A stretch of DNA of 54,384 bases, counting the filler, from Jimgerdemannia flammicorona (lineage: Eukaryota): the NCBI GenBank assembly GCA_003990765.1. It is 2 parts of 2 records of this genome, joined end to end, with 100 filler letters (N's around TTAATTAATTAA, not from the genome) between each part and the next. Parts side by side here need not be neighbours in the genome. Positions count along the whole stretch, not along the records: positions 27,248 to 54,384 come from RBNJ01000659.1; 1 more part is not named here. One strand, given 5' to 3'. Position numbers and translations under genes: made by a program. How positions within the stretch are numbered: the first letter of the stretch is position 1; each line of letters begins with the position of its first letter. Shown here in pieces: positions 2,473 to 54,384 of this stretch. The notes beneath the pieces are model-generated. The model was not told the DNA's origin. It was given only the letters and a program-made list of their open reading frames with translations, and made no database searches.

Positions 2473-2992
2473 TTAGTCATCATCTCAGTATGGGTAGGCA
2501 TCTTCTTCATCAATATCTGTTCTACATATCATCTTTATCATCTATATCATAGTTGCTCCATTCCAAGAGTTCTTCTTCTTCTTCTAGGAATAGGATTTCA
2601 ACAGCATTGATAGTGCTCAGATAGGTGGCCAGGTTCATTTTTTGTACATCATACCAGGGAACTTATGCTTGTAACAAGGCTTCAGGATTTCATTTATAAA
2701 GGGTATAGAGCCTGTCTGTAGCTATGATATCTCTTCTTAATAGTCCTGTAGTGTTTCTGATATATATTTGTTCTGGGGCTTAGAGGTTTTGCAATTGTTC
2801 TCCAATTATATAGTGGGCCTGAAGTTGATGGATCTATAATAATTATCTGACCAGAACAAGATTCTCTTAATGAATCTGAATTTTCTGGAGAATATTCCCA
2901 TTGACTTCTCAGAATTGGGATAGGGGAACTGGTAGTGATTGAAATGAGCTGAGGATAAGAGTCTGAAGGCAGTTGTCAACTCTCTGATTCAT
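2473..2992 (-). pseudogene. Gypsy A ORF4 (accessory ORF between integrase and PPT), degenerate
   Basis: MNQRVDNCLQTLILSSFQ...IGEQLQN...VEILFLEEEE... Homologous to the same region in B and D. Confidence 0.7.
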
Positions 2993-17982: not shown

Positions 17983-20122
17983 GTTACTTAGACTTCAGCT
18001 TTATTACTCAACTAATCTATATAATACAATATATCTAAGCTCTACTCTCTATCTAATCTCCTCACAGAGACTACTCTAAATATTATCTCAATTGAAAGTA
18101 ACCTCTCTCTCAATTACCTGAATTCTCCCCCCACTCTCTATATATATCTTTTCTACTAATCTATAGTATAGACTCTCTCTGAGTCTCTACTCAGACTACT
18201 ACCCATTCAACAATTCCAACAACAGTCACTCCTATCTTATACCCTCACTCTCAGCAACAATTACTGACTATTCTCAAAGATATACAGCTAAGTCTACTCT
18301 ATAGAAAGCTATTTATTATTAATCTCTCTCTATCAGTTATGACTGAAGGATATCTTACCATCTCTCTCTCTTTCCTTCTAAAGGCTATATCTCTAACTAG
18401 CTCTCAATTACTAACCAGAAATCTTTCAGTATCTCATACTTATCCAGTCAATGTTCTGAGATCTGTATCATCTTCCCCTCTTATCTAACATTAAAGCATT
18501 CTTCACAGTTGAAAAACCCCCTTTTACCAAATAGTCTGATCTAAAGTTTAATATTATATTCTGATATAGAAGTCATATACTATTCAGATCTTGGAAGGAA
18601 GCTATATACTTTAATATCCTCTCACTTTATAACTAGACTCCTGTTCAGTCCTATATCTTACTGATACTTATTATCTGTCAACTCTTTAGTCACAGATCTC
18701 TTCTTTATTCTCTCTGATACTTCACACTATTCTCAAGCTAAAAATCAATTATTAGAGAGAGAGTCACTCAATAGAAGATGATCTCAATATCATATTTCAG
18801 GTCTCTAGACTGTCTCTCTCTCATCTCCATACTAGTGAATTTCTATCTAATAAGTGCTATCTACTATCTCCTATCAGAAATCTCTATAATATATTTGATG
18901 ACTCTTCTCTAGTACTATCAAGAATAGCAGATCACTAGAAGTTTCTCTGGAAGAGAACTATATCTCTCAAATCTATTATAAGAGAGATATCCAATCTTAG
19001 CCCTCTAACTTACTGATCTATTTCAACCACCATACTCTCAAACAATACAGATACTTAGTAAAGTCAATAAGACCTAGTTCTTCCCAAATCATCAGTACTG
19101 TCAATATATCCCAATCTATCTAACTTTATCTCTTAGTCCAAATTCAAGACCTAACTATCTTTAAAAGTCTCTTCACTACTCATGCAGAGAAGTCCAGATA
19201 ATATCTCAGATATTATAGCTTAGGCAATCAGTATATATTTAGCATTATAACCCTCTCTATTAATAAGAGAGTATTTCTCCATTATGCTAGCTTTTACCTC
19301 CACTATACTCTGGGAAACAATAAGTCATATATATACTAAGAAATAAATTTCCAAATATCAGACTATCTCTTCTACTGAGACAATTGTTCCAATTATATTC
19401 TCTTCTATTACTTCACTACTAAATACTAAGATCTCACATTTGTACCAGTTTATCTTAGCCACTGAACATTCTTTATACTACTCTACTATCTTCTGCAATA
19501 TAGCCATATCTTCTATAGAGTCCAGTCTAATCACTATATTATCTACAAAAGCTCCTACCTTCCAATTCACTCTCAGTACTATTAACCTATCTACTCTATA
19601 TCTGATTCTATCTAGCAAGAGTTCTAAAGAGAAAATATAGAGGATAGGTAACAACAGATCACTATGCAGTATCCCTCTACTCAAAGAGAATGATATCTCA
19701 TTATAACTATTAATCAAGATAGCCACTCTACTCCTCTCCAATAAGCTGACCAAGAACTGCTAAAAGCCTTGAGAAATTCCAATATATTTCAGTATCCTAT
19801 CTAACCATACTCTCTGTATCTGGTCATATGTCTTCTCTTGGTCTAGAAAAACCAGCTATCTATCAATTTCCACATCTTTAGTCCCTTCAATGATATCATA
19901 AATTCAGGGTATTCAATTCTGATCAAACAGCCCCCAATGAAGCTCTATTACTCCTCACCTAGTACTCTTTAAGCTATATACTATAACTAAGTAATAATGA
20001 ACTTTGTGACCAGCTTATGATCTATATTCAGAAGTATAATTAGCTACTAATTCTTTCACTTCTCTCTTCTCTCTTTATTTTTAAATAACAGAGCCACTAG
20101 GCTTAGGCATTGATCTTCTATC
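17941..20122 (-). mobile_element. 5'-truncated or interrupted L1/Tx1-like LINE (RT plus 3' end, poly(A) tail)
   Basis: T39 at 17941-17979. RT motifs FLDQEKTYD, RGILHSDLLLPILY and GAFVDNIVI. The 3' end matches that of the LINE at 20123. Confidence 0.85.
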
Positions 20123-23100: not shown

Positions 23101-24872
23101 ATAAACCCTTCTCCAACAAGAAAGAATTCAGTCACCAATGTCCAGGCTCATCCCCCCTTCCCCCAAATCTCCTGCACCCTATTAGACCCCAGTGATCTGA
23201 TCATGGACACCTGACCACTTTCAGCATCTCCCAGACATTCACTCTCCAGCACTCTGCCATCAATATCCAGTTAATCCTGGAGCCCAGTCCCACCATCCAG
23301 TGGGTATAAATTTGATGATCCACTCAGAACTGTTGCTCTGCATCAACCAAAGAGCTCAACTTCTCTATCTCCATCCAATCATCCAACCCACCACTTCTTC
23401 TACTCATATCTCTCCTACCATCAGTCCTGTCTATCCTGCTATCATGAACTATGTTGAAGTCACCCCCCAGACAATCAATCCCTACCTCACCCATAACTCC
23501 AGCCTCTTGTAAACCTCTAATCCAATCTACATGTTCTCTCCTCTCAGCTGGACAGTAATATGACCCAATATCAGGGGGTCCTACCCTGGCCTCTTCCACA
23601 CTCTCTACACCAGTCTACTCTCCCAATGTCCAATATCTCCAATATCCCCCATCCCTTTATGAACCAGAATGCCCACCCACCCAATCCATACTGCTGTCCC
23701 ACCCCATTCCCTAGTCCAGTCCTGAAAATTAACATTGGCCTCAAACTGCATATCCTGTAGCAAGAAAGGATCTACATTCAGCCCCTTCAACTAGCTAAAG
23801 AGATTCCTTTGCCATGCCACACCCCTCAACTCATTCACATTCAGAGAAAATATTCTAGTTGTACTGTTCATATTGAAAAAATGTTTGATATTGAGATCCC
23901 AGTCTAGAATTCCATGCTCAACTCATCACTAGCAAGATCTGCCTGTCTCTCTGCCTCCAACTCATCCTCTGTGACAGCCTGAGTTTCCAGTGCTTCCAAG
24001 ATTTCCTGATACTCCACCCTATCCACAACCTCTATTTCAGCCTGATAATCTGTACAAACTGCCTTCCACTTCTCCAACCCCTTCCTCAAGCCCCACAAGT
24101 ATGCTACCCAGTTATTTACAATCTCCCAAAGGACCTCCTCTCTCTGATCATCAACTTGATATTCCTCTGACTCCAAGAGCACTGCCAGGATTTCATTTCT
24201 AATCTTTCTCGGCACTTCCTCCTATAAAGAATTTCCTTCCAATACCTATCACTTAGTACCCAGAAGTCCTCACCCCTAAGCTCCTCAGCTGCTACCCCCT
24301 CCAGAGTCTTCCACAGCTACTTCTCTTCATCTACTGCCTCAGCAATACCCTGGGCAACTCCCTTGACTCCCACCACAGGGTCCACCAAAGTGCTCCTCCT
24401 TCCTGACTCATCCCACTCCTCCTCCAGTATATCCAGTAGTTCCTCCTCTCCCCCTACCCCACTCAGGACACTATACTGAGAGCAAACTTCCTCCTCTATT
24501 TCAGCATCCTTCACACCATCCAGACCCACCTTGTTTGATCCATCTGGAGCCATATTTGGAGCCATCCTGTGCTCTCCAGCCCAGGTGCTCTCCCTCAGTC
24601 CAGTACTCCCTTCTTCTATCCTACCATCTGCTACACCCCCTCCCATCTTTGCCAATAACTCTTTCTGGATTCTCCTCTCCTGTATCTTCTCCCAGGTCCC
24701 CTTATCCATCCTGATCCTTTTGCTATCTACAATCTCCACCACTGTCTTGGCCTCATATTTCTTCTGAGTCAGTCTCCTCTTCTCAACCACTCCTGTCAGA
24801 TCCTTCAAAGCCTCCAGCAAGTCCTCCTCTTCCTCAAGTATCCCCTTCACCCTTGAAACCTTGCACTCAACT
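20123..24872 (-). mobile_element. L1/Tx1-like LINE (ORF1 C-terminal part + ORF2 APE-RT), degenerate
   Basis: T tracts at 20123-20171. ORF2 begins at ATG 23871 (MNSTTRIFSLNVNELRG). APE motifs GGDFN and SDH; RT motifs FLDQEKAYDR, VPQGDPLS, AFIDN and YLGI. Acidic/coiled ORF1 remnant at 23904-24872. Confidence 0.9.
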
Positions 24873-26613
24873 TGTAAGCGCACAACCTCCAAGCCACCGA
24901 AATTACATGCGACCTCTGAACAAATCTGGAAATCACCTGCCTGATCACAAAGCTGAGTCAAACCAAAGTCACAGCGCATAAAGCTGAGTCAATACAAAGT
25001 CACAGAACATAAGATCTACACAAACGGAACCTTACTAATCAGGACCAAATGCATATATACTGAGCACCAAGACACATTGAATCAGAGAACCAAAACAACA
25101 ACAACAACTTCCAAACACACAAACATGACCACTGAGATCTACAACTGCATCCGTGCTGACATTTGGAATGCCATTGTCAACCGAGCCACACCCCCTCTGC
25201 CCCTCATGAATATCCATAGTCTGGCACCCCTCTACTTCGTGGAAACCCGATGGAATGCCCTGAACATGCTTAGCGAGGCCCACCGAATAGGACAAATCTC
25301 AAGCTACTACCAGATCAGCTGCCTCTTAGAAGACATGGTCGAACACCACCACGATACAGACATGACCCAGATGTCTCAACACCAGAAGCTCATCGCCTAC
25401 AAACATTGAGAACTCTTCTATGAGTACAATACCTTTATTCCCCGCCTCCGAGTTACTACCAGCGAAATGGTTGCTATCCTGTCCTACGGCCAAATTGATG
25501 ACATGATACAAGAAATCAACCACAAGTACCTCGAGTATGTCGAAACCATAGACAGAACCTTCCTGCACCCCGACGACCATATCCTGCAAATGCCTCAAGT
25601 CGGATACGCCATGAAGGATGTCTACGATATAATCCACTTCGATGAAGATGAAGCAGAAGACAACGACCCCTCTGATGCCGACATGACCTCTAGCCAAGGA
25701 TCTCTGCCAACCCTGATCACTCCGCCAACCTTGCCGATGAACTTACAACAGTTCATAACTGCATATGAGACTTATTGGGACAATGACCACTGGCATGAAT
25801 ACCAACCTGCGTTCACCCCCGATTACTTCAATTACAATGAAGAGACTGGAGAACACAACCTGTACCTTCAGACAATCCTCGAGATCGAACCAACCACTCC
25901 ACTACCCGAGTACGAGCAACATGAACCACAGCCGCCAGCATACTATAACCCCGCAACTCATAGTGCCGTAACCTATAGAAGGTATGCAGACAGCGAATCC
26001 GATGAAAGCGAAGACAGTACACCCATCCTTCGCCCAGCAATACCTTATCTAGCATACGAAACAGATGATACTATCCTGTGGGACGGAGATGAAGTCCCAA
26101 TGTATTACTACCTCAGCCAACAAGAAGAAGTAATCCACGAACCATTATTCCTAGATGACTACTTCATCAGAGATGATGCAATCGATGGTGATGTCATCGA
26201 GGACTACCCAGATAGTGCCTAAACCTTTAAATAGTCTAGCAGTCATAGTATAGATAGATTAGTCTTGTACGACATGACTGTGAACTGACTCAGCAGTCAG
26301 ACGATCTCTTGACATGTCAGATCACACTTGTACTACGTGACTGCATTCCGACTCAGCAAGGCACTTAGTGCTATATCCATATTCAGCATAGTCCAGATAG
26401 CCCCTCACTAGTATAAATACCCCCTCCCCCAGACCTCAGAATCTCAGACTCAAACACACAAGAACATTCTTGAATACTTCCCTACAATATCCCTTCACAC
26501 AAATACTCCTAGTATAGCAATACCATGAATAGCAAATAAACCTATTCCATAACCCACAAACCACTCTTAAGTAAATCTGCTCTCTGTTAGGTCCTACTCC
26601 TAACCCCGTCACA
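24873..26613 (+). mobile_element. Putative long LTR (1741 bp) of a third, younger element inserted in LINE ORF1
   Basis: Abrupt switch to CpG-containing DNA at TGTAAG (24873). TATAAATA at 26412-26419, AATAAA at 26535-26540, ends GTCACA (26613). The partner LTR and TSD are not visible because of the gap, and no canonical PBS was found. Confidence 0.5.
25125..26222 (+). pseudogene. 365-codon acidic (D/E/Y/P-rich) ORF with one in-frame TGA at 25407-25409
   Basis: Track ORFs 25077-25409 and 25467-26222 are in the same frame and the 19 codons between them are open. ATG at 25125 (AAACATG). The stop is compatible with CGA->TGA. No family recognised. Confidence 0.7.
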
Positions 26614-31190: not shown

Positions 31191-31965
31191 ATATAAGAAT
31201 AAGTCCCTTGAGTAGCTATAGTTATAGAAGAAGAGTGATATTATTACTTCTGCTATAAAGAAATTATAATTTCTCAATCATAGTATAACTAAGCAAAAGA
31301 ACAATTGAAAGACTTCTTGATATATATATATATATATATCAAGTCTCTAAGTAGTATCTTATTATCTAAGTTATCTAAGAATAAGCTTGAGATAGTAATA
31401 AGTATTATTATATTAACTTATAAATTAATCTGATGGATAATAGACTAAAAGATATATAATATAAACTCAAGATACTATCTCTATTATAATTAGTACTATT
31501 GTTAGACAAATTAAAAGATAAACTACTTACTTTAAAAAATATAAATATCAGAAACTCTCTTCTAAAATTATTAAAATAAGAAAATTCTCCAGGACTATAA
31601 ATTTAAAATATAGAGAAAAAAAAGAAATAGTATTATTTTAAAATATCTGATCTTATAGCTAAGGCTGTAGAAGTATAAGCAATCTAAGGCTAAAAAACTA
31701 AAAAAAAAAAGATATCTTTAAATCTGAAGAACTCTCTGAGCTAGTCTCTTAGAATGATCCATATTATATATTATCAGAAGATAAAGATAATATACTCTAA
31801 GATACTGAAGTAGAACCAAATATAGCAACTATTATTTTAAGATAGAAAATAAATCAGAAAAGAGTCTTTTTAGTAGAAAGTTATTAATACTAAGTATAGA
31901 GATTGAGTTCAGTGTTGAGTTTAGAGATTAGGTTTAGAATCAGATTAAGAGTAAACAATAGTTTA

Positions 31966-32165
31966 GATTAAAGATAGATTATGTTTTTTCTTAGGTCAGA
32001 TTAAAGATAAGTTATATTTTTTCTCAAATTGAGTTAAAGATAGATCATATTTTTTCTAAGATTGAGTTAAAAATAGGTTATATTTTTTTTCAGATTAGAT
32101 CAAAGATGGGTCATGTTTTTTCTCAGATCAGATTAAAGATAGATTATATATTATCTCAGATTAGC
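31966..32165. repeat. 33-bp tandem repeat, ~6 units (AGATTAAAGATAGATTATGTTTTTTCTTAGGTC-like)
   Basis: Seen directly. Confidence 0.85.
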
Positions 32166-32224
32166 TATTTTTCAGATTAGGTTTTGAGTTTATTAAGTTG
32201 GGTTTGTAGAGTACTATGTATACT

Positions 32225-33612: not shown

Positions 33613-34760
33613 TGTGAAAAACCAAAACATACCACCCAAATTATAACTTAGTCGGATGATATGAATATATAGTATAGTAATTAGATACAGTAACCATTGC
33701 TGCAGAAAACTATATAAATAGTCAGACTACTAGATAAGGTATACCTGTATACCTATGCTGAACCAGTATACCTGTGCTGAACCAGTACATCTGTGCTAAA
33801 CAAGTATATTTATACTGAACTAGCACATCTGTCATAAATAGAAATCTATAATTAGCAATATCATAACCAGATAGTAACCACAATGTATAAAATATTCCAG
33901 AGACAAGAGTGAATAAACCTTAGTCTGAATTTGAATTCAAAAGCAAAAGACAAGTCTGCCTACCACACTTTGAGAGGAACTCTATAGCTACTGCTAGGAG
34001 ATTGTGAACAAAGCATTCCTTTTCTACTCTGGTCTACTTTCTGATATAAAGAAGAGTCTGTTACATTTTTGGTTTACTTATCAGATAAGCCTGAAGAAAT
34101 CTGCCAAGTTTAAGGAAGAACTTTGCCACTATTTGAGTTATTCACTATTCCCAGAGAACTCTTAAGAAATCTTGCTACAAGCCAGTCTCTTGACACAACT
34201 TTGCAATAGAGCCAGTCTATGACATAACTCTATGCAAATGAAGTGAGTCTTTGATGTAACTTGCTAAAAATCTGTGTTATCTATGCTATCTGCTGTTTTC
34301 AAGTTATTTACTATATTCTCAGAAGAATCCTGCTGATTCAGGAAGAATTTGCGATATCTGAGTTATTCAAGTTATTGAATTATCCACCTTCCAAGTTATC
34401 TGAGTTATCTCTGTCATCTGAGTTATTTATCCATTCCTAGTGAGAAGAATCTACTACTAGTATAATTCCCAGTAAGCCTGATTCAGGAGAATCTATACCA
34501 AATTAAGTTATCCACCAAATTGCCAGACTATCATGCATAAGGAGATCATTATACTATATCAAATTACCCATGCCACACAAATCACTGCTATACCCAAGAA
34601 CCATCCTAATAAGAAAATTGACTATTGTATCTAGATTGACTATTATACTACTAAATATCAAGAATATTTTGTTGCTTTTAACAAAGTAACTGGGGGCTCA
34701 AGCCAAACTACACCAAACTCCAATCTTGTAATTTGCCTCTATTGAGCCAGGTACATTACA
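33613..34760 (+). repeat. 5' LTR of Gypsy B
   Basis: TGTGAA...ATTACA. TATAAATA at ~33713 and AATAAA at ~33912, implying a short U3 and long U5. Confidence 0.92.
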
Positions 34761-37700
34761 TTTGGGGGCTCAACTGGGAAGATTTCAAAAATTAATATGA
34801 CTTTTCAGCTCACAAGAACCCACAGTCAAACTGGATACATTTGATACAATACGAATCTCTACTACTACAGGTGAACCAGTCATTACCAGCATTTAGACAG
34901 AAAGAGAAGTAATAACTTTAAGACTTACCAACTACACAGCATCAGAAGGATCTCAACCAGAATCAGAAGCTAGTATAGCTTGAAATTCCTAACCAGATCA
35001 ACCAGATAACACAGGTGGTCCTGCTAGAAATTTTGAAGAGCTTATCCAAGAACTAGAAGATCTTATTGCACAAACTTGAAATCATACAGCCAGATACCCC
35101 ATAGCAGTTTCACCAATCTCACTCATTGAATCTTTACCACCAGCTCTTACAAAATTGGAAGTAGCTCCTTCAAGAATACCTAGGCTCATTATACTTTGCC
35201 AAGGTCCAGAACACTATCCTCAAGATATCCAAGTACTCCAATCTCTAGTAATAGTTCAGAAAGTAAATCAGAGTCAGAATCTAAATCAGAATCTGGACCA
35301 GAACCAGAATCAGAAGAAATTGATAACAAAATGGCCACCTCACTACCAACCTTTACAGGATATTCAGAAGAAGATCCTAGAGAATTCCTTAATGGAATTG
35401 AGGGAATCGCAGCCCTGAGAAATCTCTCAGATGAAAGAAAATCACCATCTACAAAGTCCAGCTTAGAGAACTAGTCAGAGGAATTTTCCACCAAACAATA
35501 AATGACCCACACTCAGAACTAGTAGCACAAATATAAGCAGCAGCATCCTATGAGTTGGAATATATAGCCATGGTCCACTGACTCATTGAAAAATATACAG
35601 GAAATGAAACCCACCATAAGGCTCAATAATCCATCATGGGGATGAAGATAAACCTTGGAGAATCACCCAGAGCATTCTTTATAAGAATCCAGAAGAGAAT
35701 GCATGCAGCTGGATTCAATGCCACCAATTAAGACATCATAGGTCCAATGATCTTCATGAATAGAATTCCTCCAAACATTGCCCAATATATCTGCACCCTA
35801 GGTATCAGAAGGTCCAAAGAGTAAGTAGATACAGCCCAAGGATTCTTGATATCAGATAAAGAACTATCTGGAGTGACTATGATAAGAAGAATGATAAAGA
35901 AGACATCCTGGTTAAAGCCCTATAAGGACTCCTTCAAGGACAAGAAAGATCTAAAGAAAGAAGGCCAGCCAAGGAAGAAAAGAAGGATAGGAGTAAAATC
36001 CAAGATCTTAGTTCCAAGTTGGACCAATTGGTTGAACATATTGAAAAACTCACTATATGTAAAAATCGGAATTATCAAGACAACAGAGGATATCTACCTC
36101 AGAGGAGCCAAGATTATCCACTAAGAGATAACAGGAGCTACCAGTAAGAGGAAAGAAGATACTCTGCCTGAGACAGAGCCCAAGTCTAATGCTTCTACTG
36201 TGGACAATTTGGATACTATATCACTGAATGTGATAACAAAAGAAGTGACTGAAGGGACTCAGAACCACCAAACTGAAGGAATGATACTCAGTATAAGAAG
36301 ACTGAAGCCCATCCTATTGAAGATTTTGAAGAAGTAAGCAACACTAAAGACTATAGTGACCTAGACTTATACCCTGCCAAGGTTACCACCCGAAAAACAG
36401 TCTACCCAGCAGAGAAAAGAAAGAGACCTGTAGGAAGGCCATCTAGGAATATTAGCAGAAGAATTCTCTAAGAAGAAGATGAAGAAGATGAAGAAGAACA
36501 AGTAGAAATACCTCTCCAGACTCCCTCACCTTTTGTCCTCAAGACAAATGAGCTGCTACCAGAGAATGAAGAAATGGAGCAAGAAGAATGGGAACCTACT
36601 ACCCCAAAGTCTAAAAAGAAGTATACCCCAAAGATCATGCCTAGAGACATCTACAATTAAGCCTGGCAGAAGATTCAAGAAGCTAAGCTGGAAGTCTCTC
36701 TCCTGTAGTTTCTATAACTAATACTAGCAAGAGTCCAAAACAAATTGCTGAGGACTACTAGGTCTAGCACTGACTGGGTCTCCATTCCACAGCAAGAGCC
36801 AGCCCCCACACCCATCTAGGCTACAGAAAGATATGTTAGCACCTACCTACATAGAGATATTGAAGGATAAAAGGTGAAAATCCTCATAGACACAAGAGCA
36901 GCAGTCTGTGTTATTGCTAAACAATTCATGGATACCCTCTAATGGCCCATTGATGGACCATCCAACCTCAGTGTCCTAGTAGCAGATGGAGCCTGAACTC
37001 AACCTCTTGGAGAAGTACAAAATATCACCATCTCTCTTAGACACATTAAGTTCTCTATCCCAAAAGCTATTATCACTGAAGCTATTACCTATAATATGAT
37101 CCTTGACACCAACTGGATGAAAGAAATGAATGCAGTTGTTGATATTAATCAACAAGTACTCAAGTTTGACTATTAAGACAAGAAGTACAGAGTTAAGGTG
37201 ACCAGCTATGAGCAATCAAAGAAGAAGAAGAAGGTCACCATCTAGAAGGAATATGCCAGTAATAAAGTATCTATCACAGAAGAGAAAGAAGAATCCAAAG
37301 ATAGAAATGATCCCAGACTCAATCCCCAGATCAGCCTAGTAGATGATAGGCCAGAATATAATATATGGGCCAAGAATACTATCCCCATTACCATTGGAGC
37401 CATTGCAGGAGAAATCAAAGAATGCCCTATCTGCCTCAAGAGACATAAGTGCCTCAAGCACTCCTCCAAGATCATTGGGACAAGGAATTCACCTGGTATA
37501 GCCTGCCCTGAGTACAGAAGAAAGAAGAAGAAATGTAGACATATCTCAGAGATACCTGCAGCTAAAGCTGCAGAAGTATAAGCAATTTGGGATCAAGAAT
37601 CATCTGAGAAAAAAGAAACTCCTAAACAGGAGGTTCTTAAACAAGAAATATCTGAGGAAGAAGAAGTCCCCAAACTCATTCCTTGGGATGACTCTTGTTG

Positions 37701-38900: not shown

Positions 38901-41768
38901 TAAGAAGAAAGTATATCTCCTTCAAGTCAACCATCTCAAGAGGAATGTTCTCCAGCAAGTGTACCACCAGCTAGTCAAACTGTACAAGAGTCTCATTCTG
39001 GAGCCTGGAGAGCAAACCACCTTCAAAATCTTTGCACCACCCGACCCCAGAAATCTCTTCTTTGAACCCAATGAAGATATCCTATACCTGGATATAGAAG
39101 AATATACATTTCCCAACAAGATGAATTCAGTATGCTCTCAAGCAACCAACCAAAGTTGGGAGACCATCATCTTGCCAAAAGGAACCATCATAGGACATCT
39201 GGTACCCTTTCTCAACCAAACTCATAGAGAAGTTTATGAACTAAACTTATCAAGAAATGGCAAAAGGTCCCAGAAGAAAGGAAAGACTCCTCTGTGATCC
39301 AGGAGATAGTAAAGCCTTCTACCAATATTGGAGAAGAATTGATACCCCAACAATAGCAACAACTAGTAGAACTCCTCAACAAATATCAAGATATCTTTAC
39401 TACTGATTATGGCAACCTATCATATAACCCATCATATCACTATAGTATAAATATAGGAAATGCAACACCCATCTGACAGAAACTCTATAGAATACCCCAT
39501 TACCTAAAGAAATTTGAAAAGGAGCACATTTAAGAGCTTTTGGACAATAGAGTCATCCAACCCTCAACTAGCTCTTGGGCTAGCCCTATACTTATTGTAT
39601 CAAAGAAAGGAGGATGGAGACTCTGTATAGATTACAGAAAACTCAATTTAGTCACTGAAAAGGATATCTATCCTTTGCTCAGAATTGATGACCTCTTGGA
39701 CCAGTTATAAGATGCCAGATACTTCAGCAATATGGACCTTTTTTTGGGATTCCATGAGATCCCCATAGACCCAATAGACATCCAAAAGACAGTCTTCCTT
39801 ACTCTAGGAAAACTGTTTGAATACCTCTGAATGCTCTTTAGACTTTACAATATACTCCCCACCTTCCAGAGAATAATGAATTCAGTCTATGCCCCCTTGA
39901 TTTACTACTGCCTAATTGTATATATGGATGATTCCAACATCTATTTATCAAATTTCAAGGAATACCTACACTACCTAGAAGAATTCTTCAAGCTTACCTG
40001 CAAGAACCATCTGAGACTCAATGCCAAGAAATGCTATTTTGGAAAACAGAAACTTAAATTCCTTAGATTCATAGTTTTGAAAGAAAGAACTCATACAGAT
40101 CCAAAGAAATCCAAGAAGATCAACAATTGGCCAGTACCCAAGACTCTGAAGGAAACACTACTATTTCTGATACTAGTATTCTACTACAGAAGATTTATCA
40201 AGAACTTTACCAAAATTGCTGCTCCAATCCAAGTCCTTCTCAAAAAAGAGTACCTTACAAATAGACAGAATCACAAGAGAAAGCCTTCAAAGAACTCAAG
40301 AACTGCATGACTACAGTACTAATTCTGGTACACTCTAATCTATAAAAGCCATTCATCTTGTATACAGATACTTCCAAAGATAGCCTGGGAGCAGTTTTAG
40401 TCTGAAGGACCAACCAATAACACCATATAATAGCTTATACAAGCTGAGCTATTAATCAGTAGCAGATGAACTATGGCAGCACCAAATTGGAATGCCTTGC
40501 AGTCATATAGGCAGTCACTCTGTTCAAGCATTATCTCATTGAAAAAAAAATTCACCCTAATTACAGACCATACAGTTCTTAAATGGCTATTCAACTACAA
40601 AAAACCTACCAGAATCCTAGCCTACTGAATCCTTATCCTTCAGGATTACAAAATCACTATCATCTACAAAGCAGGGAAAGCTTACAACAATATTGATATA
40701 CTTTCCTGCCAGCTCCAATGAATTAGAAGAAGGGTGTCCTGAGGAACTATACCCTAAAGGAAGCTCCTCAGACCATCAAAGCACAAGAAGATCTCATTCA
40801 AAAAGAACATTAGAAAGCCCACTAAGGACAGACAAATATAGAGGAGAAGTTACAAACAATATACCAATATTGGCCCAATCTCAGAACACAAGTCTGGGAT
40901 ATACTCAAGAAATGTGACACCTGTCAGAAGTACCAAGGAAGGAAGAATCACCAAGCACCACTAAACCAATCATACCACCAAACAACATCTTTCAGAGATA
41001 GAGAGTAGATGTAATTGGACCCCTACCAGTTACACCAAGAAGAAATAAGTATATTCTTATATTTGTGGAATATCTGACCAAGTGGCCCAAGACTTTCTCA
41101 ATGGAAATTACAGATATCTTGACTATTATAGGTCTTCTCCATAGACTCACACCCAGATATGGACCCCCAGAAGAACTTATCTCTGACCAAGGCACAGAAT
41201 TCATCAACAACATAATCATAAGTTATACCTGAATTCACAAGATCCATCTCAAACAGACCACATCATACCACTCTCAGACCAATGATATGACAGAAAGAAT
41301 AAATCAAACTATCAAGAAAGGACTTGCCCAAGTCAATCCTACCAACTGAGACCTCTGCTTACCTGAGATCCTATGGGAAATTTGGAACACCCCTGCTGCC
41401 TCTATCAAACAAAAGCCATTCAAAATAATATTTGCTAAGAAAACCAAAACTGCTGATCATAAGAATCTTGGAGACCTCCTTAAGAAGGCAGAATAATTAC
41501 ATAATCAAGCCTGATTCCAGATTACTAAAGCCCAAGAAAGACAAAAGAAGTACTATGACCAGAAACAAAAGGACCAGGAGATCAAGATTGGAGATCAAGT
41601 ACTAGTTTGGAGAAGCATGATTGAAACAAACTTTGGAGACCAAATGAGAAGGACCTTATCTTGTATACAATATCAGAGAAACCAATATCTATTTAAGAAG
41701 TATAGATGGATAAACCCTGAGGACACCAGTACATATTAATCACCTTAAGATATACTTCTCTCCACATC

Positions 41769-42280
41769 ATGAATCAGAACAACTGCCTTCAGACTCTTGT
41801 CCTCAGTTCATTTCAATCACTGCTAATTCTCCTACTCCAATTCTGAGAAGTCAATGAGAATATCCTCCAGAGAATTCAGATTCATCAAGAGAATCTTGTC
41901 CTGACCAAATAATTGTTACAGGTCCACCAACTTCAGATCCATTATGTAATTGGAGAACAATTGCAGAACCTCCCAGTCCTAGAACAAATATATATCAGAA
42001 ATACTACAAGACTACATATCAAGAAGAGATGTCACTGCTACAGATAGGCTCTATACTCTTTACAAATATAACTCTGCAGCCCTGATGCAAGCAGAATTCC
42101 CCTGGTGTGATATGAGAAATGAACCTAGCCACCTATCTGAGTATTATCAATGCTGTTGAAATCCTGTTCTCAGAAGAAGAAGAAGAACCTCTGAAATAGA
42201 GTAACTATGGTACAGATAATAAAGATGATGGAATAGATATTGATGCAGAAGATGCTTATCCACACTAGAATGACAACTAA
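41769..42280 (+). pseudogene. Gypsy B ORF4, degenerate
   Basis: MNQNNCLQTLVLSSFQ...LQVHQLQIHYVIGEQLQNLP...VEILFSEEEEE... Homologous to A and D. Confidence 0.7.
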
Positions 42281-42320: not shown

Positions 42321-43564
42321 TGTGATAAACCAAAACATACTACCTGAATTATAACTTAGTCAGATGACATGAATATATAGCATAATAACTAGATACAGCA
42401 ACTATTGCTGCAGAAAACTGTATAAATAGCCAGACTACCAGATAAGATATATCTGTGCCAAACCTGTATACCTGTGCTGAATCAGTATATCTGTACTGAA
42501 CCAGTATACCTGTACTGAACCAGCACACCTACCATAGATAGTAATCTATAATTAGCAACATGGTAATCAAATAGTAATCATAATGTATAAAATACCTCAG
42601 ATATAAGAGTGAATAAACCTTAGTCTAAAATTGAATCCAAAAGCAAAAGACAAGTCTTTCTACCATACTTTGAGAGGAACTCTATAGCTACTGCTAGGAG
42701 ATTGTGAGCAAAGCATTCCTTTTCCACTCTGGTCTACCTTCTGATACAAAGAAGAGTCTGTTATATTTTTGGTTCACTTGCCAGATAAGCCTGAAGAAAT
42801 CCACCAAGTTCAAGAAAGAACTTTACCACTATTTAAGTTATCTGCTATTCCCAGAGAGCTCTTAAGGAACCTTACCACAAGCCAGTCTCTTGATGCAACT
42901 TCACAGTGGAGCCAGTCTATGACATAACCCCATGCAAACAAAGCCAGTCTTTGATATAACTTGCCAAGAATCTGAGTTATCTGTACCATTTACCATTTTC
43001 AAGTTATTTACCACATTCCCAGAAGAACTCCACTAATTCAGAAAGAATCTGTAACATCTGAGTTATCTAAGTTATCTCCATCATCTGAGTTATTCATCTA
43101 TTCCTAGTAAGAAGAATCCACTGCCAGTATAATTGCCAGTGAGCCGATTCAAGAATCTATACCATTCTCTATTTTCAGCAAGTCTGATTTAGAAGAATCT
43201 ATGTCAAATTAAGTTATCTACCAAATTGCCAGAATATCATATATAAATATCACTGCACTATACAGAGATCATCATGCTATATAAGGAATTATTATACAGA
43301 AATCACATAAGAAAACCACTAAATTGCCAGACCATCATACATAAGGAGATTGTCATACTACACCAAATTGCTCATACCATACAAATTACTGCTATACCTA
43401 AGAACTATCCCAATAAGGAAATCAACCATTGTATCCATATTGACTATTATACTACTAAATACTAAGAATATTTTATTGCTTTTAACAAAGTAACTGGGGG
43501 CTCAAGCCAAACTACACCAACTCCCAATCTTGTAATTTACCTTTATTGAGCCAAGTATATTATA
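42321..43564 (+). repeat. 3' LTR of Gypsy B
   Basis: TGTGAT...ATTATA, following the PPT AGTAGGGGCTGA. Confidence 0.92.
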
Positions 43565-45887: not shown

Positions 45888-47237
45888 CTATATATATTGT
45901 AACATGCTGGCTCAATGGAGACAAATTACAAGATTGGGGGTTGATATAGTTTGGCTTGAGCTCTCAGTTACTTTGTCAAAAGCAACAAAATGTTCTAAGA
46001 TTCCTGAGGTCCTTGGTGTTTAGTGGTATAATAGTCAAGCTGGATATCTGTAAGTGGTTTCCATATTGGGACAGTTCTCTGGGTGTAGCAGCAATTTGTG
46101 TCTTTCCTTCTTGGGTCAACTGAGAATGGCAGAATTTGTATATAGCATGAGTGGTTTCCTTCTTGAGTGACAATCTCTGATTTCTGCATGATAATCTGGC
46201 AATTTAGCAGTTCTCCTTATGTGATTTCTGCATGATAATCTCTGTGTAGTGTGATGATCTCTGTGTGATGATCCTCATATAGCATGATGATTTCCAAAAG
46301 TATGCAATTTCTGGCAGATAGCTTGATTTGGCTTGCTGGGAATTGTATGGTATGGATTCTTCTATACCAGGCTCACTGAGAATGCAGATAACTTGAAAAT
46401 GGCAGATGATGTGGATTCTTCCAGATTCGGCAGCTTCAACTGGGAATACGGCAGTTAACTTGGAGATGGCGGATGATGTGGATTCTTCCTGAATCAGCAG
46501 ACTTCTTGAAAACAGCGGCTTAACTGGGAATAACTTGGATGACATAAATTCTTCCAGATAGGGCTCTTCTGGAGAATACAAATAACTGGTAGCATTCTTT
46601 GGAAAAGAGTCTCTTGGCAAAGTTACATCAAAGACTGGCTTCATTTGCATGGGGTTATATTGTAGACTGGCTCCATTGCGAAGTTGCATCAGAAACTGGC
46701 TTGAGCAAGGCAGCTTTCTTGGGAAGGTGGAGGATAATCTTGAAAACGGCAGCTTATTCCTTAAGTGGCAGGTTACTCAAAAGACAGTGAAGTTCTTCTT
46801 GAACTTAGGTGGCAAATCTTCAGGCTTATCTGGCAAGCAAACCAATCAATCTTTGTATCGGAAAGTAGACTGGAGTAGGAATAAGGGGATCAATTACTCA
46901 ATCTTTAGAGGCTTCTTTGGTTTGCACTTCAATTCAGACTGAGGTTTATTCACTCTTATCTCTGGAGTAATTTATACAAGTTGGTTGCTATCTGGTTACT
47001 ATGTGGCTAACTATAGATCTGCTACTTATGGCAGGTGTACAGAGTCTGTACAGATAAACAGACCCTTTCTGGTATGTCTGGCTATTTATACAGTTTTCTA
47101 CAGCAATGATTGCTGGTTACTAAGCTGTGTGTTCACATTATCTTGTTCACGTCATCTGGTTAAGATATGATTTGGGTGGTATATCTTGGCTTGTCACATC
47201 AGCCCCCACTGAAGGGTAGTCTGTCCCAGACTATTCT

Positions 47238-47753
47238 TCAGTCATCATCCCAATAAGCATAGGCTGCTTCTGTATCTACACCTGTTTCAGCATCTTCATT
47301 GTCTGTACTGGGGTTACTCCATTCTATGGGCTCTTCTTCTTCTTCTGGGAATAGGATTTCAACAGAGTTAATAATGCTCAAATAGGTAACAGAGTTCATT
47401 CCTTGAATATCATTCAGAGAGAATTGTGCCTGTGTCAGGGCTGTGATATTTTATTTGTAAATGGTATATAGTCTGTCTGCAGTAGTAGTGTCTCTTCTGG
47501 TCAGACCTGTGGTGTTCCTGATGTAGATCTGTTCTGGGGCTGGGAGGTTCTGCAATTGTTCGCCAATTGTATAATAGGCCTGCAGTTGGTGGACTTGTAG
47601 TAGGCATCTGGCCAAGGTGAGATTTTCTTGATAAGCCTAGATCCTTTGAAGGGGACTTCCATTGGCTTGGCTGAATTGGGGTAGAGGGACTGGTAGGGCT
47701 TAGAAGGAGCTGAGGATCAATGTCTAGAGGTACTGATCAATCCTTTGGCTCAT
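47238..47753 (-). pseudogene. Gypsy D ORF4, 171 aa, four internal stops (CAR->TAR type)
   Basis: MSQRIDQYL*TLILSSF*ALPVPLPQFSQANGSPLQRI*AYQENLTLARCLLQVHQLQAYYTIGEQLQNLPAPEQIYIRNTTGLTRRDTTTADRLYTIYK*NITALTQAQFSLNDIQGMNSVTYLSIINSVEILFPEEEEEPIEWSNPSTDNEDAETGVDTEAAYAYWDDD. Confidence 0.75.
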
Positions 47754-48817
47754 AGTGTAGAGGGGAAATATAGTTTGAGGCGATTGATGTATACTGGTGT
47801 TCTCAGGGTTCATCCATCCATGCTTCTTAAATAGGTGCTGGTTCCTCTGATATTGTGTACAAGATAAGATCCTTCCCATTTCGGTTCTAGTTTGGTGGCA
47901 AAGTTTGTCTCAATCATGCTTCTCCAAACTAGGACTTGATTTCCAATCTTGATCTTCTGATCCTTCTGTTTTTGGTTATAGTACTTCTTTTGTCTTTCCT
48001 GGGCTTTGATAATCTGTCCTTGGACTTGATTACATAGCTGTTCTGCCTTCTTGAGGAGGTCTCTGAGATTCTCATGGTCAGCAGTTCTGGTTCTCTTGGC
48101 AAACATCATTTCAAATGGCTTTTGTTTGGTGGATGTGGCAGGGGTATTCCGAATTTCCCATAGGATCTCAGGTAAGCAGAGGTTCCAATTAGTAGGATTG
48201 ACTTGGGCAAGTCCTTTCTTGATGGTTTGGTTCATTCTCTCTATCATGCCATTGGTCTGAGAGTGGTATGATGTGGTCCTTTTGAGGTGGATCTTGTGAA
48301 TTCAGGTATAACTTGTGATTATTTTGTTGATAAATTCCGTGTCTCGGTCAGAGATGAGTTCTTATGAAGGTCCATATCTGAGTGTGAGTTCATGGAGGAG
48401 GCCTACAATGGTTAAGGCATCTGCAATTTCCATTGGGAAAGCCTTGGGCCACTTGGTCAGATGCTCCACAAATACAAGGATGTATTTGTTTCTTCTTGGT
48501 ATAACTGGTAGAGGTCCAATTATGTCTACTCTCCATCTCTGAAATATGTGAGTGAGTGGGGGAATCGGTTGCAGAGGGGCTTGATAGTTCTTCTTTCCTT
48601 GGTACTTCTAGCAGATGTCACATTTCTGAATAATATCCTGAACTTGAGTTCTAAGGTGGGGCCAATGTTGATATTGTTTTCGAATCTTGTCTTCTGTACT
48701 TGTCTGTCCTTGGTGGGCTTTTTGATGTTCTTGTCGGATAAGATCTTCTTATTTCTTAATGGTCTGAGGAGCTTTCTTTAGGGTGTGGTTCCTCGGGACA
48801 CCCTTTTTCTGATTCAT
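47750..48817 (-). pseudogene. Gypsy D integrase as a separate ORF
   Basis: ATG at 48817 (MNQKKGVPRNHTLKKAPQ). HHCC zinc finger EHQKAH...CDIC; DDE core VDIIGP / ISDRD / GMIERMN; C-terminal PKWEGSY...INRLKLY. No chromodomain. Confidence 0.88.
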
Positions 48818-50286
48818 TGGGGCTGGCAGAAAAGTACATCAACATTGTTGTGGGCTTTCCCTGCTTTGTGAATGATGGTGATTTTGTAATCCTGAAGGAT
48901 AAGGATCCAGCAGGCTAGGATTCTGGCTAGTTCCTTGCAGTTGAATAGCTATTTGAGAGCTGCATAGTCTGTGATCAAGGTGAACCTTTTTCCAATAAGG
49001 TAATGCTTGAACAGGGTGACCACCCATATGACTGCAAGATATTCCAGTTTGGTGCTACCATAGTTCATTTGCTGCTGATTGGTAGCTCTACTTGCATAAG
49101 CTATCACATGGTGCTGTTGGTCAGGTCCTTCTTGGGCTAGAACTGCTCCTAGGCCATCTTTGGAAGCATCTGTATACAAGATGAATGGCTTCTGTAGATT
49201 GGGGTGCACAAGGATTGGTGCTGTAGTTATGCAGTTCTTGAGTTCTCTGAAGGCTTTTTCCTGTGATTCTGTCTATTTGAATGGCATTCCTTTCTTGAGA
49301 AGGATTTGGATTGGGGCAGCAATTTGAGCAAAATCCTTAATAAACCTTCTGTAGTAGGATACTAGTATCAGGAATGATAGTGTTTCTTTTGGAGTCTTGG
49401 GTACTGGCCAATTGTTGATCTTCTCAGTTTTCTTTAGGTCTGCATGAGTTTCTTCTTTTGAAACCATGAATCCCAAGAATTCAAGTTTCTGTTTCCCAAA
49501 GTAGCATTTCTTTGCATTCAATCTCAAGTGATTCTTGTAGGTGAGCTTGAAGAATTCCTCTAGGTGGTGCAAGTATTCTTCAAAATTTGCTGAATAGATA
49601 TTGGAATCATCCATATATACAATCAGGCAGTGGTGGATCAAGGGGGCATAGACTGAATTCATCATCCACTGAAAGGTGGGGAGTGCATTGCAGAGTCCAA
49701 AGGGTATTCAGAGGTATTCAAACAGTTTTTCTAGAGCAAGGAAGGCTGTCTTTTGAATGTCCTTGGGGTCCATGGGGATCTTATAGAATCCTGCGAAGAG
49801 GTCCATACTGCTGAAGTATCTGGCATCTTGTAACTGGTCCAAAAGGTCATCGATTCTGGACAAAGGATAAGTATCCTTTTCAGTAACTGAGTTGAGTTTT
49901 CTGTAATCCACATAGAGTCTCCATCCTCCTTTCTTTGGTATGATAAGTATAGGGCTGGCCCAGGGGCTGGTAGAGGGTTGGATGACTCCATTGTCTAAGA
50001 GTTTTTAGATGTGCTCCTTTTTGAATGTTTTCAAATGATGGGGTATTCTATAGGGTTTCTGCCAGATGGGTGTTGCACTTCCTATATTTATGCTGTGGTG
50101 ATATGATGGGTTGTATGACAGGTTGCCATAATCGGTAGTGAAGATATCTTGGTATTTGTTGAGAAGTTCTACTAGTTGTTGCTGTTGTTGAGGTGTCAAT
50201 TCTTCTCCAATATTGGTGGAAGGCTTTACTGTCTCCTGGGTCACAGAGGGGCCTTTCCTTTCTTCTGAGACCTTTTGCCATTTCCC
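48814..50286 (-). pseudogene. Gypsy D RT-RNaseH ORF
   Basis: PIWQKPYRIP, DYRKLN, YMDD, FILYTDAS, LITDYAAL, HNNVDVL. Ends in TGA at 48814-48816. Confidence 0.92.
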
Positions 50287-53200
50287 AATAGGTTTAGTTC
50301 ATAAACTTCCCTATGAGTTCAGTTGAGAAAAGGCACCAGATGTCCTATAATGGTTCCTTTTGGCAAGATGATGGTTTCCCAACTTTGGTTGATTGCTCGG
50401 GAGTATACTGGGTTCATCTTGTCAGGGAATATGTGTCCTTCTATATCCAGGTGTGAGATATCTTCCTTGGGTTCAAAGAAAAGGTTCCTGGGGTCAGGTG
50501 GTGCAAATATTTTGAAGGTAGTTTATTCTCCAGACTCCAGGATGAGATTCTTGTGCAGTCTGACTGGTTGCCAGTATACTTGCTGGGGAACATTCCTCTT
50601 TAGGTAGTTGACTTGAAGGAGATATACCTCTTTCCTCTCTGAACTTCCAAATCCCTTGGCTTGTCTTATTCCTTCGGTTAGTTCAGAGACTTCTTGTAAC
50701 TGTAGAGTCTTGACCTTCATGAAGACTACTTGGGCAATCTTTTGTCCTCTAATGATTTGGTGTCATTCTGCACTGTTGTTGTGTAGGATAACCTTGATTT
50801 TACCTGTATATCCAGGGTCAATAGTTCCTCCTTCTACAGTTATCTCTTGTCTGGCAAGTCCGGACCTTGAGGTCAGTTGAATATAAGCTCCTTGAGGTGG
50901 CTGCATGGCTAATTCGGTTCTGACCATGAAGGTTTTTCCAGGCTTGATAGATTCATCCTCCAGGCTGTGAAGATCATATCCTATATCCTCTGGGTGGGCT
51001 TTGGTTGGGGGTTTGGCCTTAGGGTGCAGCAGGGCATACTGGGCAATGTCCTTGCTGAGTTCAGGCTTTCCTAAGGCTGAAGCTCTACTAGTAAAAAGCC
51101 TCCAAGCTCTAAGGTTGAGGTGTGGCCATCTGGCTCCAGTAGAGGGATCTCAGAGGTAATTGATTCCCCTCCTTCCTATAGGGTCAAGGGCTTCCATGAA
51201 GTTGGTGGCATCTTCTGCTCATCCTTGGCAGATTATATGTCTGATGAGAGCTAGGATGTCTTCTTCCAATTCGTAGATCTTGAGAATTCTTTTTCCAGGC
51301 TTCTTGGTCTGGCTTTTTCGAATCTGACTTTTTTGGATCTGGCTTTAGTTATCTCCTTTCTTCAAGGTGTGCACTGTAACATCATGACTGAGGTGAATCT
51401 TCTGATGTCTGCAGTCTCGGCAATCAGGGTGTCTCCCATGGTTGCAATATCCCATTGCTCAGAAATGATGTTCCCAGCTATTTATCTCTTGTTGTCTTGG
51501 AAATTGGTACCCATCTTGATCATAGGTTGGGGGAAGGGTAGACAAGGGGTATATTTCTGTTCAGATAAAGAAGCCTTGTCCTCTAAATCGACTTTGTAAC
51601 CTTGTGGTGACTTCTTGAAAGGTGGTAGACTATGCAAGAGTAGTTGGGGGTTCTGGTCTCTGGGGTCTCTGTCTTTCTTGTTGGTCCAACAGATGACACT
51701 GGTAGCAGTAGTCTCGGGGAGAGTAGAAGACCATTTGATGTGGACATCTTCCTAGCTAGAAAGCTTTCTCTTGGTGGGTTTCTTTCTTGGAGATAATAGT
51801 GATAGTACTGGGTCCTTCTTCTGTATTCCAGGGGTCATTGTCTTCAGGTGGTATCCAGTGAGGGTTATCCCAGGGGATGAGTTCAGGGACTTCTTCTTCA
51901 TCAGGTGCTTCTTGTTCAGGAACTTCTTGGTCAGAAGTTTCTTCTTCCTCAGATGATTCTTGACCCCAAATTGCTTGTACTTCTGTAGCTTCGGTTGCAG
52001 GTGTTTCTGGAACATGTCTGCATTTCTTCTTCTTTCTTCTGCATTCTGGGCAGGCTGCACCAGGTGATTTCCTTGTTCCCATGATCTTGGAGGAGTGCTT
52101 GGGACACTTGTGTCTCTTGAGGCATATGGGGCATCCTTTGGCTTCTCCTGCAATGGCTCCAATAGTGATGGGGATGGTGTTCTTAGCCCACACATTGTCT
52201 TCTGGTCTGTCATCCACCAGGTTAATTCAGGGATTGAGTCTGGGATCATTTTCATCTTCGGATTCTTCTTCTTCTTCTGTGGTAGATTCTTCACTGCTGG
52301 CATATTCTTCCTGAATAGTGATCTTCTTCTTCTTCTTTGATTGCTCATAGCTAGTTACCTTAACTCTATACTTCTTGCCTTGGTAGTCAAACTTGAGTAC
52401 TTGTTGGCCAATGTCAACAACTGCATTCATTTCCTTCATCCAGTTGATGCCAAGAATCATATCATAGGTGACAGCTTCAGTGACAACAGCTTTGGGGATG
52501 GAGAACTGAATGTGTCCAAGAGAGATGGTGATATTTCGTACTTCTCCAAGGGGTTGAGTTTGGGCTCCATCTGCTACTATGATGCTGAGGTTGGATGGTC
52601 CATCAATGGGCCATTGGAGGGTGTCCAAGAATTGTTTGGCAATAACACAGATAGCTGCTCCTATATCTATGAGGATTTTCGCTTTTTGTCCTCCAATATC
52701 TCCATGTAAATAGGTGCTGACATGTCTTTCAGCTGCTTGAACTGGGATGGAAGCTGGTTCTTGCTGTGGGATTGGAACTCGGCCAGTGCTAGACCTGGTG
52801 GTTCTCAGCAATTTGTTTCGGACTCCAGCTGGTATCAGTTGTAAGAACTGCAGAAGAGGGACTTCCATCTTGGCTTCTTGAATCTTCTGCCAGGCTTCAT
52901 TGTAAATATTCCTAGGCATGGTCTTCGGGGTGTACTTCTTCTTAGACTTTGGAGCAGTAGGTTCCCGTTCTTCTTGTTCCATTTCTTCATCTTCTGGTAG
53001 CAACTCGTTTGTTTTGGGCATGAAAGGTGAAGGGGTTCGGGGAGGTGTTTCAACTTGTTCCTCCTCATGTTCTTCATCTTCTTCTTGAATAATTCTCCTG
53101 CTGATGTTTCTGGATGGTCTTCCCACAGGTCTCTTTCTTTTCTCTGCTGGGTAGACTGTCTTTCGGGTGGTAACCTTGGTAGGGTACAAGTCTAGGTCAC

Positions 53201-54384
53201 TGTAGTCTTCACTGTTGCTTGCTTCCTCGAAATCTTCAACAGGATGGGCTTCAGTCTTCTTGTACTGGGTGTCATTCCTTCAGTTTGGTGGTTCTGAGTC
53301 CCTTCGGTCACTTCTTTTGTTGTCACATTCAGTGGCATAGTGTCCGAATTGTCCACAGTAGAAGCATTGGACTTGGGCTCTGTCTCGAGCAGGGTACCTT
53401 CTTTCTTCTTGCTGGTAATTCCTGTTATCTCTTGGTAAATGACCTTGGCTCCTCTGTGATGGGTATCCTCTGTTGTTTTGGTAATCCCGATTTTCATGTG
53501 TGGTGAGTTTTTCAATCTGCCCAACCAATCAGTCTAACTTGGAGCTGAGGTCTTGAATTTCACTCCTGTTCTTCTTTCCTTCCTTGGCTGGCCTTCTTTC
53601 TTCAGACCTTTCTTGTCCTTGAAGGAGTCCTTATAGGGCTTTGACCAGGATATCTTCTTTATCTTCCTTCTTGTCATGGTCACTCCAGGTAGTTCCTTGC
53701 CTGACATCAAAGAATCCTTGGGCTGCATCTACTTGCTCTTCAGACCTTCTGATGCCTAGGGTGCGGACATACTGGGCAATATTTGGGGGAATTCCATTCA
53801 TGAAGGTCATTGGACCTATGATGTCCTGGTTGGTGGCATTGAACCCGGCAGAGTACATTCTCTTCTGAATTCTTGTGAAGAAGGCTCTGGGTGATTCTTC
53901 AAGATTCATCTTCATTCCCATGATGGATTCCTGGGCCTTGTGGCAGGTTTCATTTCCTGCATACTTTTCTATGAGCCAGTAGACCATAGCCTGATATTCT
54001 AGCTCATAGGAGACTGCTGCTTGTATCTGTCTTGCTAGTTCTGAATCTGGGTTGTTTGCTGTTCAATGAAAAATCCCTCTGGCTGGTTCTCTGAGCTGAG
54101 CTTTGTAGATGGCGATCTTCCTTTCATCTGAGAGATTCCTCAAGGCTGCAATTCCTTCGATTCCATCAAGGAATTCTCTGGGGTCTTCCTCCAGGTATCC
54201 TGCAAAGATTGGCAATGAAGTGGCCATTTCTTCGTCACTTTCTTCTGATTCTGGTTCGAATTCGGATTCTGATTCTGATTCACTTTCTGAACTGTCACTA
54301 GAGACCAGAGTGCTTGGGTATCTTGAAGATGGTGTTCTGGTCCTTGGGTGAGGTGGAGTAGGCCTAGGTATCCTTGTAGGAGCT
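50241..54384 (-). pseudogene. Gypsy D ORF1: gag (CCHC ~53324-53365), protease (~52360-52720), Cys/His-rich domain (~51360-52150), dUTPase (~50640-51035), pseudo-dUTPase (~50323-50570)
   Basis: Track fragments starting at 53987, 53528, 53189, 52217 and 50720 share one frame. Motifs CFYCGQFGHYATEC, ILIDIGA, YDMILG, IGYDL, RSGLA, IDPGYTGK and GFGSS. Confidence 0.88.

Follow-up and report, generated by a model that had tools for sequence, protein, structure and literature searches.

In long terminal repeat (LTR) retroelements and retroviruses, integrase (IN) enters the particle as part of the Pol precursor. Ty3, for example, releases IN by cleavage of its Gag3-Pol3 polyprotein (PMC5371799), and surveys of fungal elements describe one fused or two open reading frames (ORFs) with IN inside Pol (PMC2864245, PMC3248453). 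Our literature searches, whose coverage left subscription journals outside, found in the available texts no description of an LTR element or lineage with a separate IN ORF. Translation of a downstream ORF by termination-reinitiation is known from RNA viruses such as the victorivirus HvV190S, the hypovirus CHV1 (UAAUG) and the caliciviruses, and among retrotransposons from SART1, with an overlapping stop and start, and LINE-1, with a 63-nt spacer (PMC5972666). HvV190S needs both its AUGA and an upstream structure, and viral restart efficiencies amount to 4–20% (PMC6631646). Here, we describe a 54,384-nt stretch of DNA from Jimgerdemannia flammicorona (assembly GCA_003990765.1), hereafter the window, which holds copies of a Ty3/gypsy-type LTR retrotransposon whose IN is encoded by an ORF of its own, opening with its own methionine on an AUG that overlaps the stop codon of RNase H (RH) as AUGA.

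The assembly is 231 Mb long and CpG-poor, and the window contains three long copies (A, B and D) and one partial copy of the same element, all of them decayed. Copy D, on the minus strand, shows the domain order Gag-CCHC, protease (PR), dUTPase, reverse transcriptase (RT), RH and IN. Its RT and RH frame (48814..50280, −) closes with DVLFCQPQ*, or DVLSRQPQ* where decay is less advanced. Shifted back by one base, the next frame starts with MNQKKGVPRN at the AUGA (48814..48817, −) and continues into the HHCC, DDE core and C-terminal domain of an IN ORF interrupted by decay stops (47750..48817, −). Pfam recognizes PF17921, PF09337 and PF00665 in the IN frame and RT_RNaseH in the frame upstream. 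The initial annotation had placed the AUGA in all three long copies, and it was found in each (D 48817-48814, −; B 40718-40721, +; A 4053-4050, −). Its view of IN as a separate ORF with a conserved methionine and without the usual RH–IN linker likewise stands. That this ORF runs in frame into HHCC and DDE is true of copy D and fails in A and B, since copy B opens with MN*, a stop at IN codon 3, and copy-specific indels in both A and B place the later IN core in another frame. Similarly, RH ends directly on the AUGA in copy D, and in copy A it stops one codon earlier, at an extra TAA immediately before the ATGA. In the IN of copy A, a piece of about 335 bp (3074-3408) is also inverted with respect to the remainder of the copy.

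These copies belong to family 1 of this genome, from which 45 distinct copies were gathered among the best-scoring matches in its own genome (the best 40 of 1128 candidates, plus further copies). The junction tetranucleotide is ATGA in 40 of the 45, ATAA in four and AAGA in one, with no case of ACGA or ACAA, and no copy carries an indel within 40 nt of it. The G>A changes at the AUG (4/45) lie somewhat above the background of 28/899, an excess tolerable in dead copies. Next to the AUGA, two true CpG sites vary among copies (18 CG/14 TG/12 CA and 24/6/13, respectively). At two further sites close by, nearly all copies show the decayed form (41 TG or 41 CA of 43–44), so that the CpG control alone is no proof. 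The origin of the RH stop by CpG decay was nevertheless rejected by the variant pattern of the 45 copies, and an intact CpG-rich element from a metagenome (L061; CpG observed/expected 0.94) also has ATGA. Moreover, when a family-1 copy (L030) is compared with a metagenome relative (L060), a single pair, differences upstream fall on the wobble positions of RH (8/4/3), and over the 60 nt after the AUG they fall on those of IN (3/2/9). The overlap between RH and IN is thus inherited and a product of neither chance nor decay.

Further families and relatives extend this picture. Family 2 of the same genome has AUGA in 21/21 copies, after an RH tail 18 aa longer, and families 3 and 5 carry AUGAAUAA at the RH/IN junction in 14/14 and 6/6 copies, respectively. 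Family 4 (L170, L173) has RH and IN fused through a linker of about 28 aa. The metagenome set comprised 80 loci kept of 270 confirmed, automatically called as 21 fused, 31 split and 28 without RT or RH in view. Seventeen of the split loci, which have the methionine of the group, were analyzed. The other 14, with a low profile score and no N-terminal methionine, were left out as fused elements that had probably broken, only L087 and L121 being judged by eye. Together with families 1–3, this gave 20 junctions: four with AUGA, one AUG-n2-UAA, one UAAUG (L072), one at −8, one at +5 and 12 spaced by 18–524 nt. Three intact elements (L061, L067 and L072) have open frames on both sides of the junction. 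In L067, Pol runs about 300 aa beyond RH to its stop (L067:3520-4441), and a 65-nt spacer and IN follow.

The same methionine is found at the protein level. A protein search returned 1092 stand-alone-sized IN matches, and among the 120 listed a methionine occupies profile position 1 in 91; for stand-alone matches outside the profile build, the count is 51/75, and for long matches it is 0/120. This methionine is conserved across proteins 30–60% identical. The only named proteins among the 120 listed stand-alone matches are from Rhizophagus, at 34–35% identity, and the group is probably from soil fungi. Among longer proteins, no match exceeded 37% identity, which is weak evidence. Among viral contigs, a single query found no relative and an alignment query found only distant ones, at 12 loci, four of which were examined. 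A Ginger-type DNA transposon is a stand-alone gypsy-like integrase without RT or RH and without LTRs. For the window copies and the 17 group loci with a junction, this identity was ruled out by the RT-RH found upstream; 28 of the 80 loci, with no RT or RH in the DNA examined, might still be of that kind.

The prospect that the split is a dead lesion, shared by non-autonomous copies and amplified with them, draws on the heavy decay of the window copies, whose LTR pairs are 85–86% identical. It can practically be dismissed, as it is contradicted by the open frames of L061, L067 and L072, by the presence of the split in four families of this genome, by a wobble pattern that switches at the AUG and by the conservation of the methionine across divergent proteins.

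Regarding kinship, families 1, 2 and 3 and L060, L061 and L062 form a subclade with a Shimodaira–Hasegawa-like approximate likelihood ratio (SH-aLRT) support of 98 on IN and of 95 on RT-RH, the latter with five members, family 3 not included. In all six, the AUG lies within −5 to +5 nt of the stop, despite RH tails that differ in length and sequence. The initial annotation had suggested testing the conservation of AUGA across distant members of the family and had named relatives with RH and IN in one frame as a case that would refute its reading. Conservation holds for families 1 and 2 and L061, and the exact AUGA is present at only 4/20 junctions, or 8/20 if all tight ones (−8 to +5 nt) are counted; relatives with a single frame do exist (L170, L173 and the fused outgroups), but only outside the tight subclade. 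Hence, a separate IN start is a trait of the wide group, and the AUGA or overlap is not. On the RT-RH tree, the wider split group is clustered, with two changes, and a single clade is not rejected (approximately unbiased test, p-AU 0.233). Three fused elements (L086, L092 and L098) are nested within it when either IN tree is used, and strict monophyly of all split elements is not established. These trees were quick ones, built without named reference elements.

Upstream of the junction, the element contains another frame change. Families 1 and 2 and L060 all move by −1 from the dUTPase frame to that of RT, at G GGA AAY. Besides family 2 and L060, the frame change is present in 17/17 aligned rows and GGGAAAY in 12/17 (copy D counted twice). 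In copy D, the slippery heptamer G GGA AAT lies in the dUTPase frame (50280..50286, −), with RT in the −1 frame onward. This motif and the conserved frame change suggest that RT-RH is probably reached by programmed −1 frameshifting. Since the change (50286-50280, −) sits between dUTPase and RT, and not between gag and protease, both protease and dUTPase would be made at the Gag level. L061 and L067 have instead one open Gag-Pol frame, which in L061 remains open for 1577 aa.

A similar recoding event at RH/IN, by frameshift or readthrough, would yield an ordinary RT-RH-IN fusion in which the methionine is incidental. Four of nine tight junctions, with AUGA, together with those of L062 and L072, do put IN in the −1 frame, five spaced members are in frame 0, and two annotated fungal proteins that score inside the group, P0122 and P0123, have RH and IN joined. 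However, none of the eight tight junctions contains a slippery heptamer, and GGGAAAY, elsewhere in this element, illustrates the form that such a site takes. The stretch open in both frames measures just 22 nt in family 1 and 1 nt in L072. All three offsets (0, +1 and −1) are represented, and the methionine at profile position 1, found in 91 of the 120 stand-alone matches listed and in 0/120 long ones, would be hard to reconcile with an incidental residue. P0122 and P0123 lack both the DxLSR motif of RH and the methionine, which would follow if a predicted intron had been used to bridge the split in these gene models, and we infer that it was. Such a fusion is therefore very improbable.

The RNA around the start codons offers further clues. 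A hairpin is predicted to end 8–10 nt before the AUGA in family 1, L060 and family 2. Families 1 and 2 have the same base stem at the same distance, located in the RH motif in one and in the 18-aa tail in the other, and the 5′ arm uses different codons in family 1 and L060 with its pairing intact. In copy D, the hairpin (48826..48864, −), ending 8 nt before the AUGA, is weakened (z −0.55, as compared with −2.5 to −3.2 in copies with a CGC codon). A different structure characterizes a sister subgroup (L064, L067, L069, L074, L082 and L095), in which a conserved, covarying stem-loop lies 3–12 nt before the IN AUG (L067:4466-4503) and matches nothing in Rfam; its loop measures 8 nt, and a side loop is GNRA-like. 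In it, 92.6% of cells are paired and two-sided changes occur in 6/9 pairs, with 0/500 shuffles as high and slid controls at 24–63%, all counted on the same six sequences from which the structure was derived. This stem-loop is a candidate initiation element, unrelated to the hairpin of families 1 and 2. Rfam gave no match at the junctions of 11 loci.

These structures could be taken as a sign that ribosomes are recruited internally, as by an internal ribosome entry site (IRES), without any upstream translation, and both the hairpin of families 1 and 2 and L060 and the covarying stem-loop would fit. Nevertheless, both structures are small and bear no relation to each other, some members show no structure at all, the stem-loop counts come from the six sequences that gave the structure, and an IRES would make a stop overlapping the AUG unnecessary. 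We regard this explanation as quite improbable.

A second stop/start overlap joins IN to a third ORF, ORF3. Copy D carries an AUGA at the IN stop and ORF3 start (47750..47753, −), followed by ORF3 (47238..47753, −), of 171 aa with an acidic C-terminus and of no known family; the corresponding ATGA lies at 41769..41772 (+) in copy B and 2989..2992 (−) in copy A. Among family-1 rows, ATGA is present in 23/24 (copy D counted twice). The offset between the two ORFs is −1 in six rows and −14 in four, with one misread, such that in some copies the IN stop lies 14 nt past the ORF3 AUG (AUG-n11-UGA in place of AUGA). Family 3 has AUG-n5-UAA in 14/14 copies, and a clear ORF3 overlap was not found in families 2 and 5. 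Five ORF3-like proteins gave no Pfam family, the comparison of ORF3 with Atlas gave matches at 0.83 only, below significance, and the RNA upstream of the ORF3 AUG showed no stable structure, with inconsistent values of −3.8 to −13.6 kcal/mol. In family 2 (L140-L143), about 85 further codons of open IN frame follow a TGA common to all copies seen, a possible case of readthrough or a separate ORF.

Termination-reinitiation would account for this arrangement. A single genomic RNA would be read as a chain, in which ribosomes first make Gag-PR-dUTPase and a fraction of them slips −1 at GGGAAAY to make RT-RH. Ribosomes ending at the RH UGA would be partly held, probably aided by the hairpin just upstream, and would restart on the overlapping AUG to produce free, full-length IN, and the second overlap would lead to ORF3. 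The IN AUG would take the place of the cleavage by which protease releases IN in ordinary elements; spaced relatives might use scanning after termination, or another route. The likeness to HvV190S, CHV1 and caliciviruses lies in AUGA, UAAUG (L072) and AUG-n2/n5-stop spacings, in structure just upstream and in the use of fungal ribosomes, and such spacings are among those given for coupled termination-reinitiation (PMC5972666). Stop and start codons that overlap or adjoin in the victorivirus manner occur in the tight subclade only (8/20 junctions), and the second overlap and the upstream hairpin add to a victorivirus-like reading. Those viruses differ in being two-cistron RNA viruses with an H-type pseudoknot or a termination upstream ribosome-binding site (TURBS), whereas here a hairpin is present in part of the group, up to three cistrons are linked and a frameshift lies upstream. 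SART1 and LINE-1, which resemble the tight and the spaced members, respectively, couple ORF1 to ORF2 and involve neither integrase nor particle, and the structure in SART1 is downstream of the overlap. The start context is weak at tight junctions, where a purine at −3 is found in 3/8 as against 11/12 at spaced ones (Fisher p 0.018, in a post hoc test that ignores kinship), and this fits direct placement of the ribosome on the AUG. On balance, we favor termination-reinitiation, which the initial annotation had also proposed, as the source of IN in the tight subclade, with some reserve.

Several points weigh against it. The hairpin, which speaks for restart in having the best z among 185, 218 and 174 windows in L060, L049 and L030, respectively, was scored with a window size picked after it had been seen. 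It is absent from L061, L062, L072, L085 and family 5. The initial annotation had suggested folding the upstream RNA in search of a pseudoknot, and what folding gave is a simple hairpin, from a program that does not predict pseudoknots. Spaced junctions make up 12/20 and fall in all three frames, and their spacers lack the depletion of AUG that pure scanning restart would predict (17 seen against 21 expected). A frameshift followed by restart at the viral rate would leave IN scarce and ORF3 scarcer in families 1 and 2. Finally, for both Ty3 and Ty1, IN supplied apart from RT does not rescue cDNA synthesis (PMC5371799).

The main alternative is that IN, and ORF3 with it, is translated from subgenomic mRNAs, either spliced like retroviral env or transcribed from an internal promoter, the overlap being a matter of genome compaction. 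This would account for spaced and tight members alike and would avoid the low-yield cascade; strong start contexts in spaced members (11/12), AUG-containing spacers and, in family 1, a pyrimidine run with a CAG 5 nt before the AUG are in keeping with it. A splice acceptor shared at RH/IN was not found, however: the CAG of family 1 is absent from family 2 and from L060 (88% IN identity with the family-1 query), and L060, family 2 and L076 have no YAG within 120 nt upstream. Compaction alone, moreover, gives no reason to expect overlaps to recur within 5 nt when RH tails vary in length. We consider subgenomic mRNAs unlikely.

Beyond termination-reinitiation at the first junction, a more comprehensive scheme can be put forward tentatively, at slightly less than even confidence. 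It would comprise, in one branch, the reading of a single RNA through a −1 frameshift followed in cascade by two termination-reinitiations, each assisted by a hairpin; in sister branches, other structured RNA before the IN start; and, overall, an old, undescribed fungal Ty3/gypsy group with IN outside Pol. The best sequence match of IN among solved structures is Ty3 Gag-Pol (7Q5B, E 6e-58), and a predicted model of the L061 IN (predicted local distance difference test, pLDDT, 89.7) aligns from residue 2 with both Ty3 IN (Z 24.3, 387 residues at a root-mean-square deviation of 6.1) and foamy virus IN (Z 26.7, 357 residues at 6.6), which places the IN AUG close to the start of mature IN. In family 1, some 40 aa of this N-terminal extension have been lost. 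As guesses, packaging could rely on co-translational capture on the element's own RNA or on binding to RT. If the scheme is true, free IN must reach RT or the particle with no tether to Gag, a feat beyond Ty1 and Ty3, and a natural, successful lineage of this kind would break the Pol-precursor rule and provide a system for studying IN recruitment. LTR elements would also join the short list of eukaryotic users of termination-reinitiation and would supply small fungal cassettes for reporter tests. Gene predictors appear to mask the split, either by bridging it (P0122, P0123) or by naming IN as a stand-alone gene.

In other respects, the element is typical of Ty3/gypsy (Metaviridae), with LTRs of the TG...CA form, a primer-binding site, a polypurine tract, the order PR-RT-RH-IN and an integrase of Ty3/gypsy type. 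The likeness to Ty3 extends to LTRs, polypurine tract, Gag-PR-RT-RH-IN order and HHCC/DDE integrase; the differences are the ORF and methionine of IN and the ORF3 after it. An IN inside Pol and released by protease, which is a typical trait of this group and not a phylogenetic criterion, is what it lacks. The organization is best described as a variant of Ty3/gypsy, most likely using a known viral translation trick. A dUTPase between PR and RT is shared with PosPlaTy3-5, a dUTPase-bearing fungal gypsy element compared by description only, for which the available text of PMC2864245 mentions no split IN.

As for the remaining anatomy, ORF1 of copy D (50226..54227, −), encoding the Gag CCHC, aspartyl protease, a Cys-rich region and dUTPase, is a single frame with several decay stops, and the 5′ end of the element lies beyond the window. 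Several Cys/His-rich motifs without a Pfam match are found between protease and dUTPase (52300-51100, −). At its 3′ end, copy D has a polypurine tract (47199..47210, −) and a 3′ LTR (45898..47198, −, TG...CA). In copies A and B, both LTRs are present, together with a polypurine tract and a stretch resembling a primer site. The 5′ LTR of copy B (33613..34760, +) is 86% identical to its own 3′ LTR near 42321-43564 and is followed by its primer-binding-site-like stretch (34763-34779, +). This stretch and that at 9971-9956 (−) resemble what we take to be the complement of the tRNA-Pro 3′ end, presumably unusual for gypsy elements. Elsewhere in the window, non-LTR-like fragments with endonuclease- and RT-like words and a 270-aa acidic ORF (19478-24221, −; 25410-26222, +) were noted by eye, as was a remnant of a host gene resembling tetratricopeptide repeat (TPR) genes near 15000-16500, and a tandem repeat with a 33-nt unit in at least six copies occupies 31935-32195.
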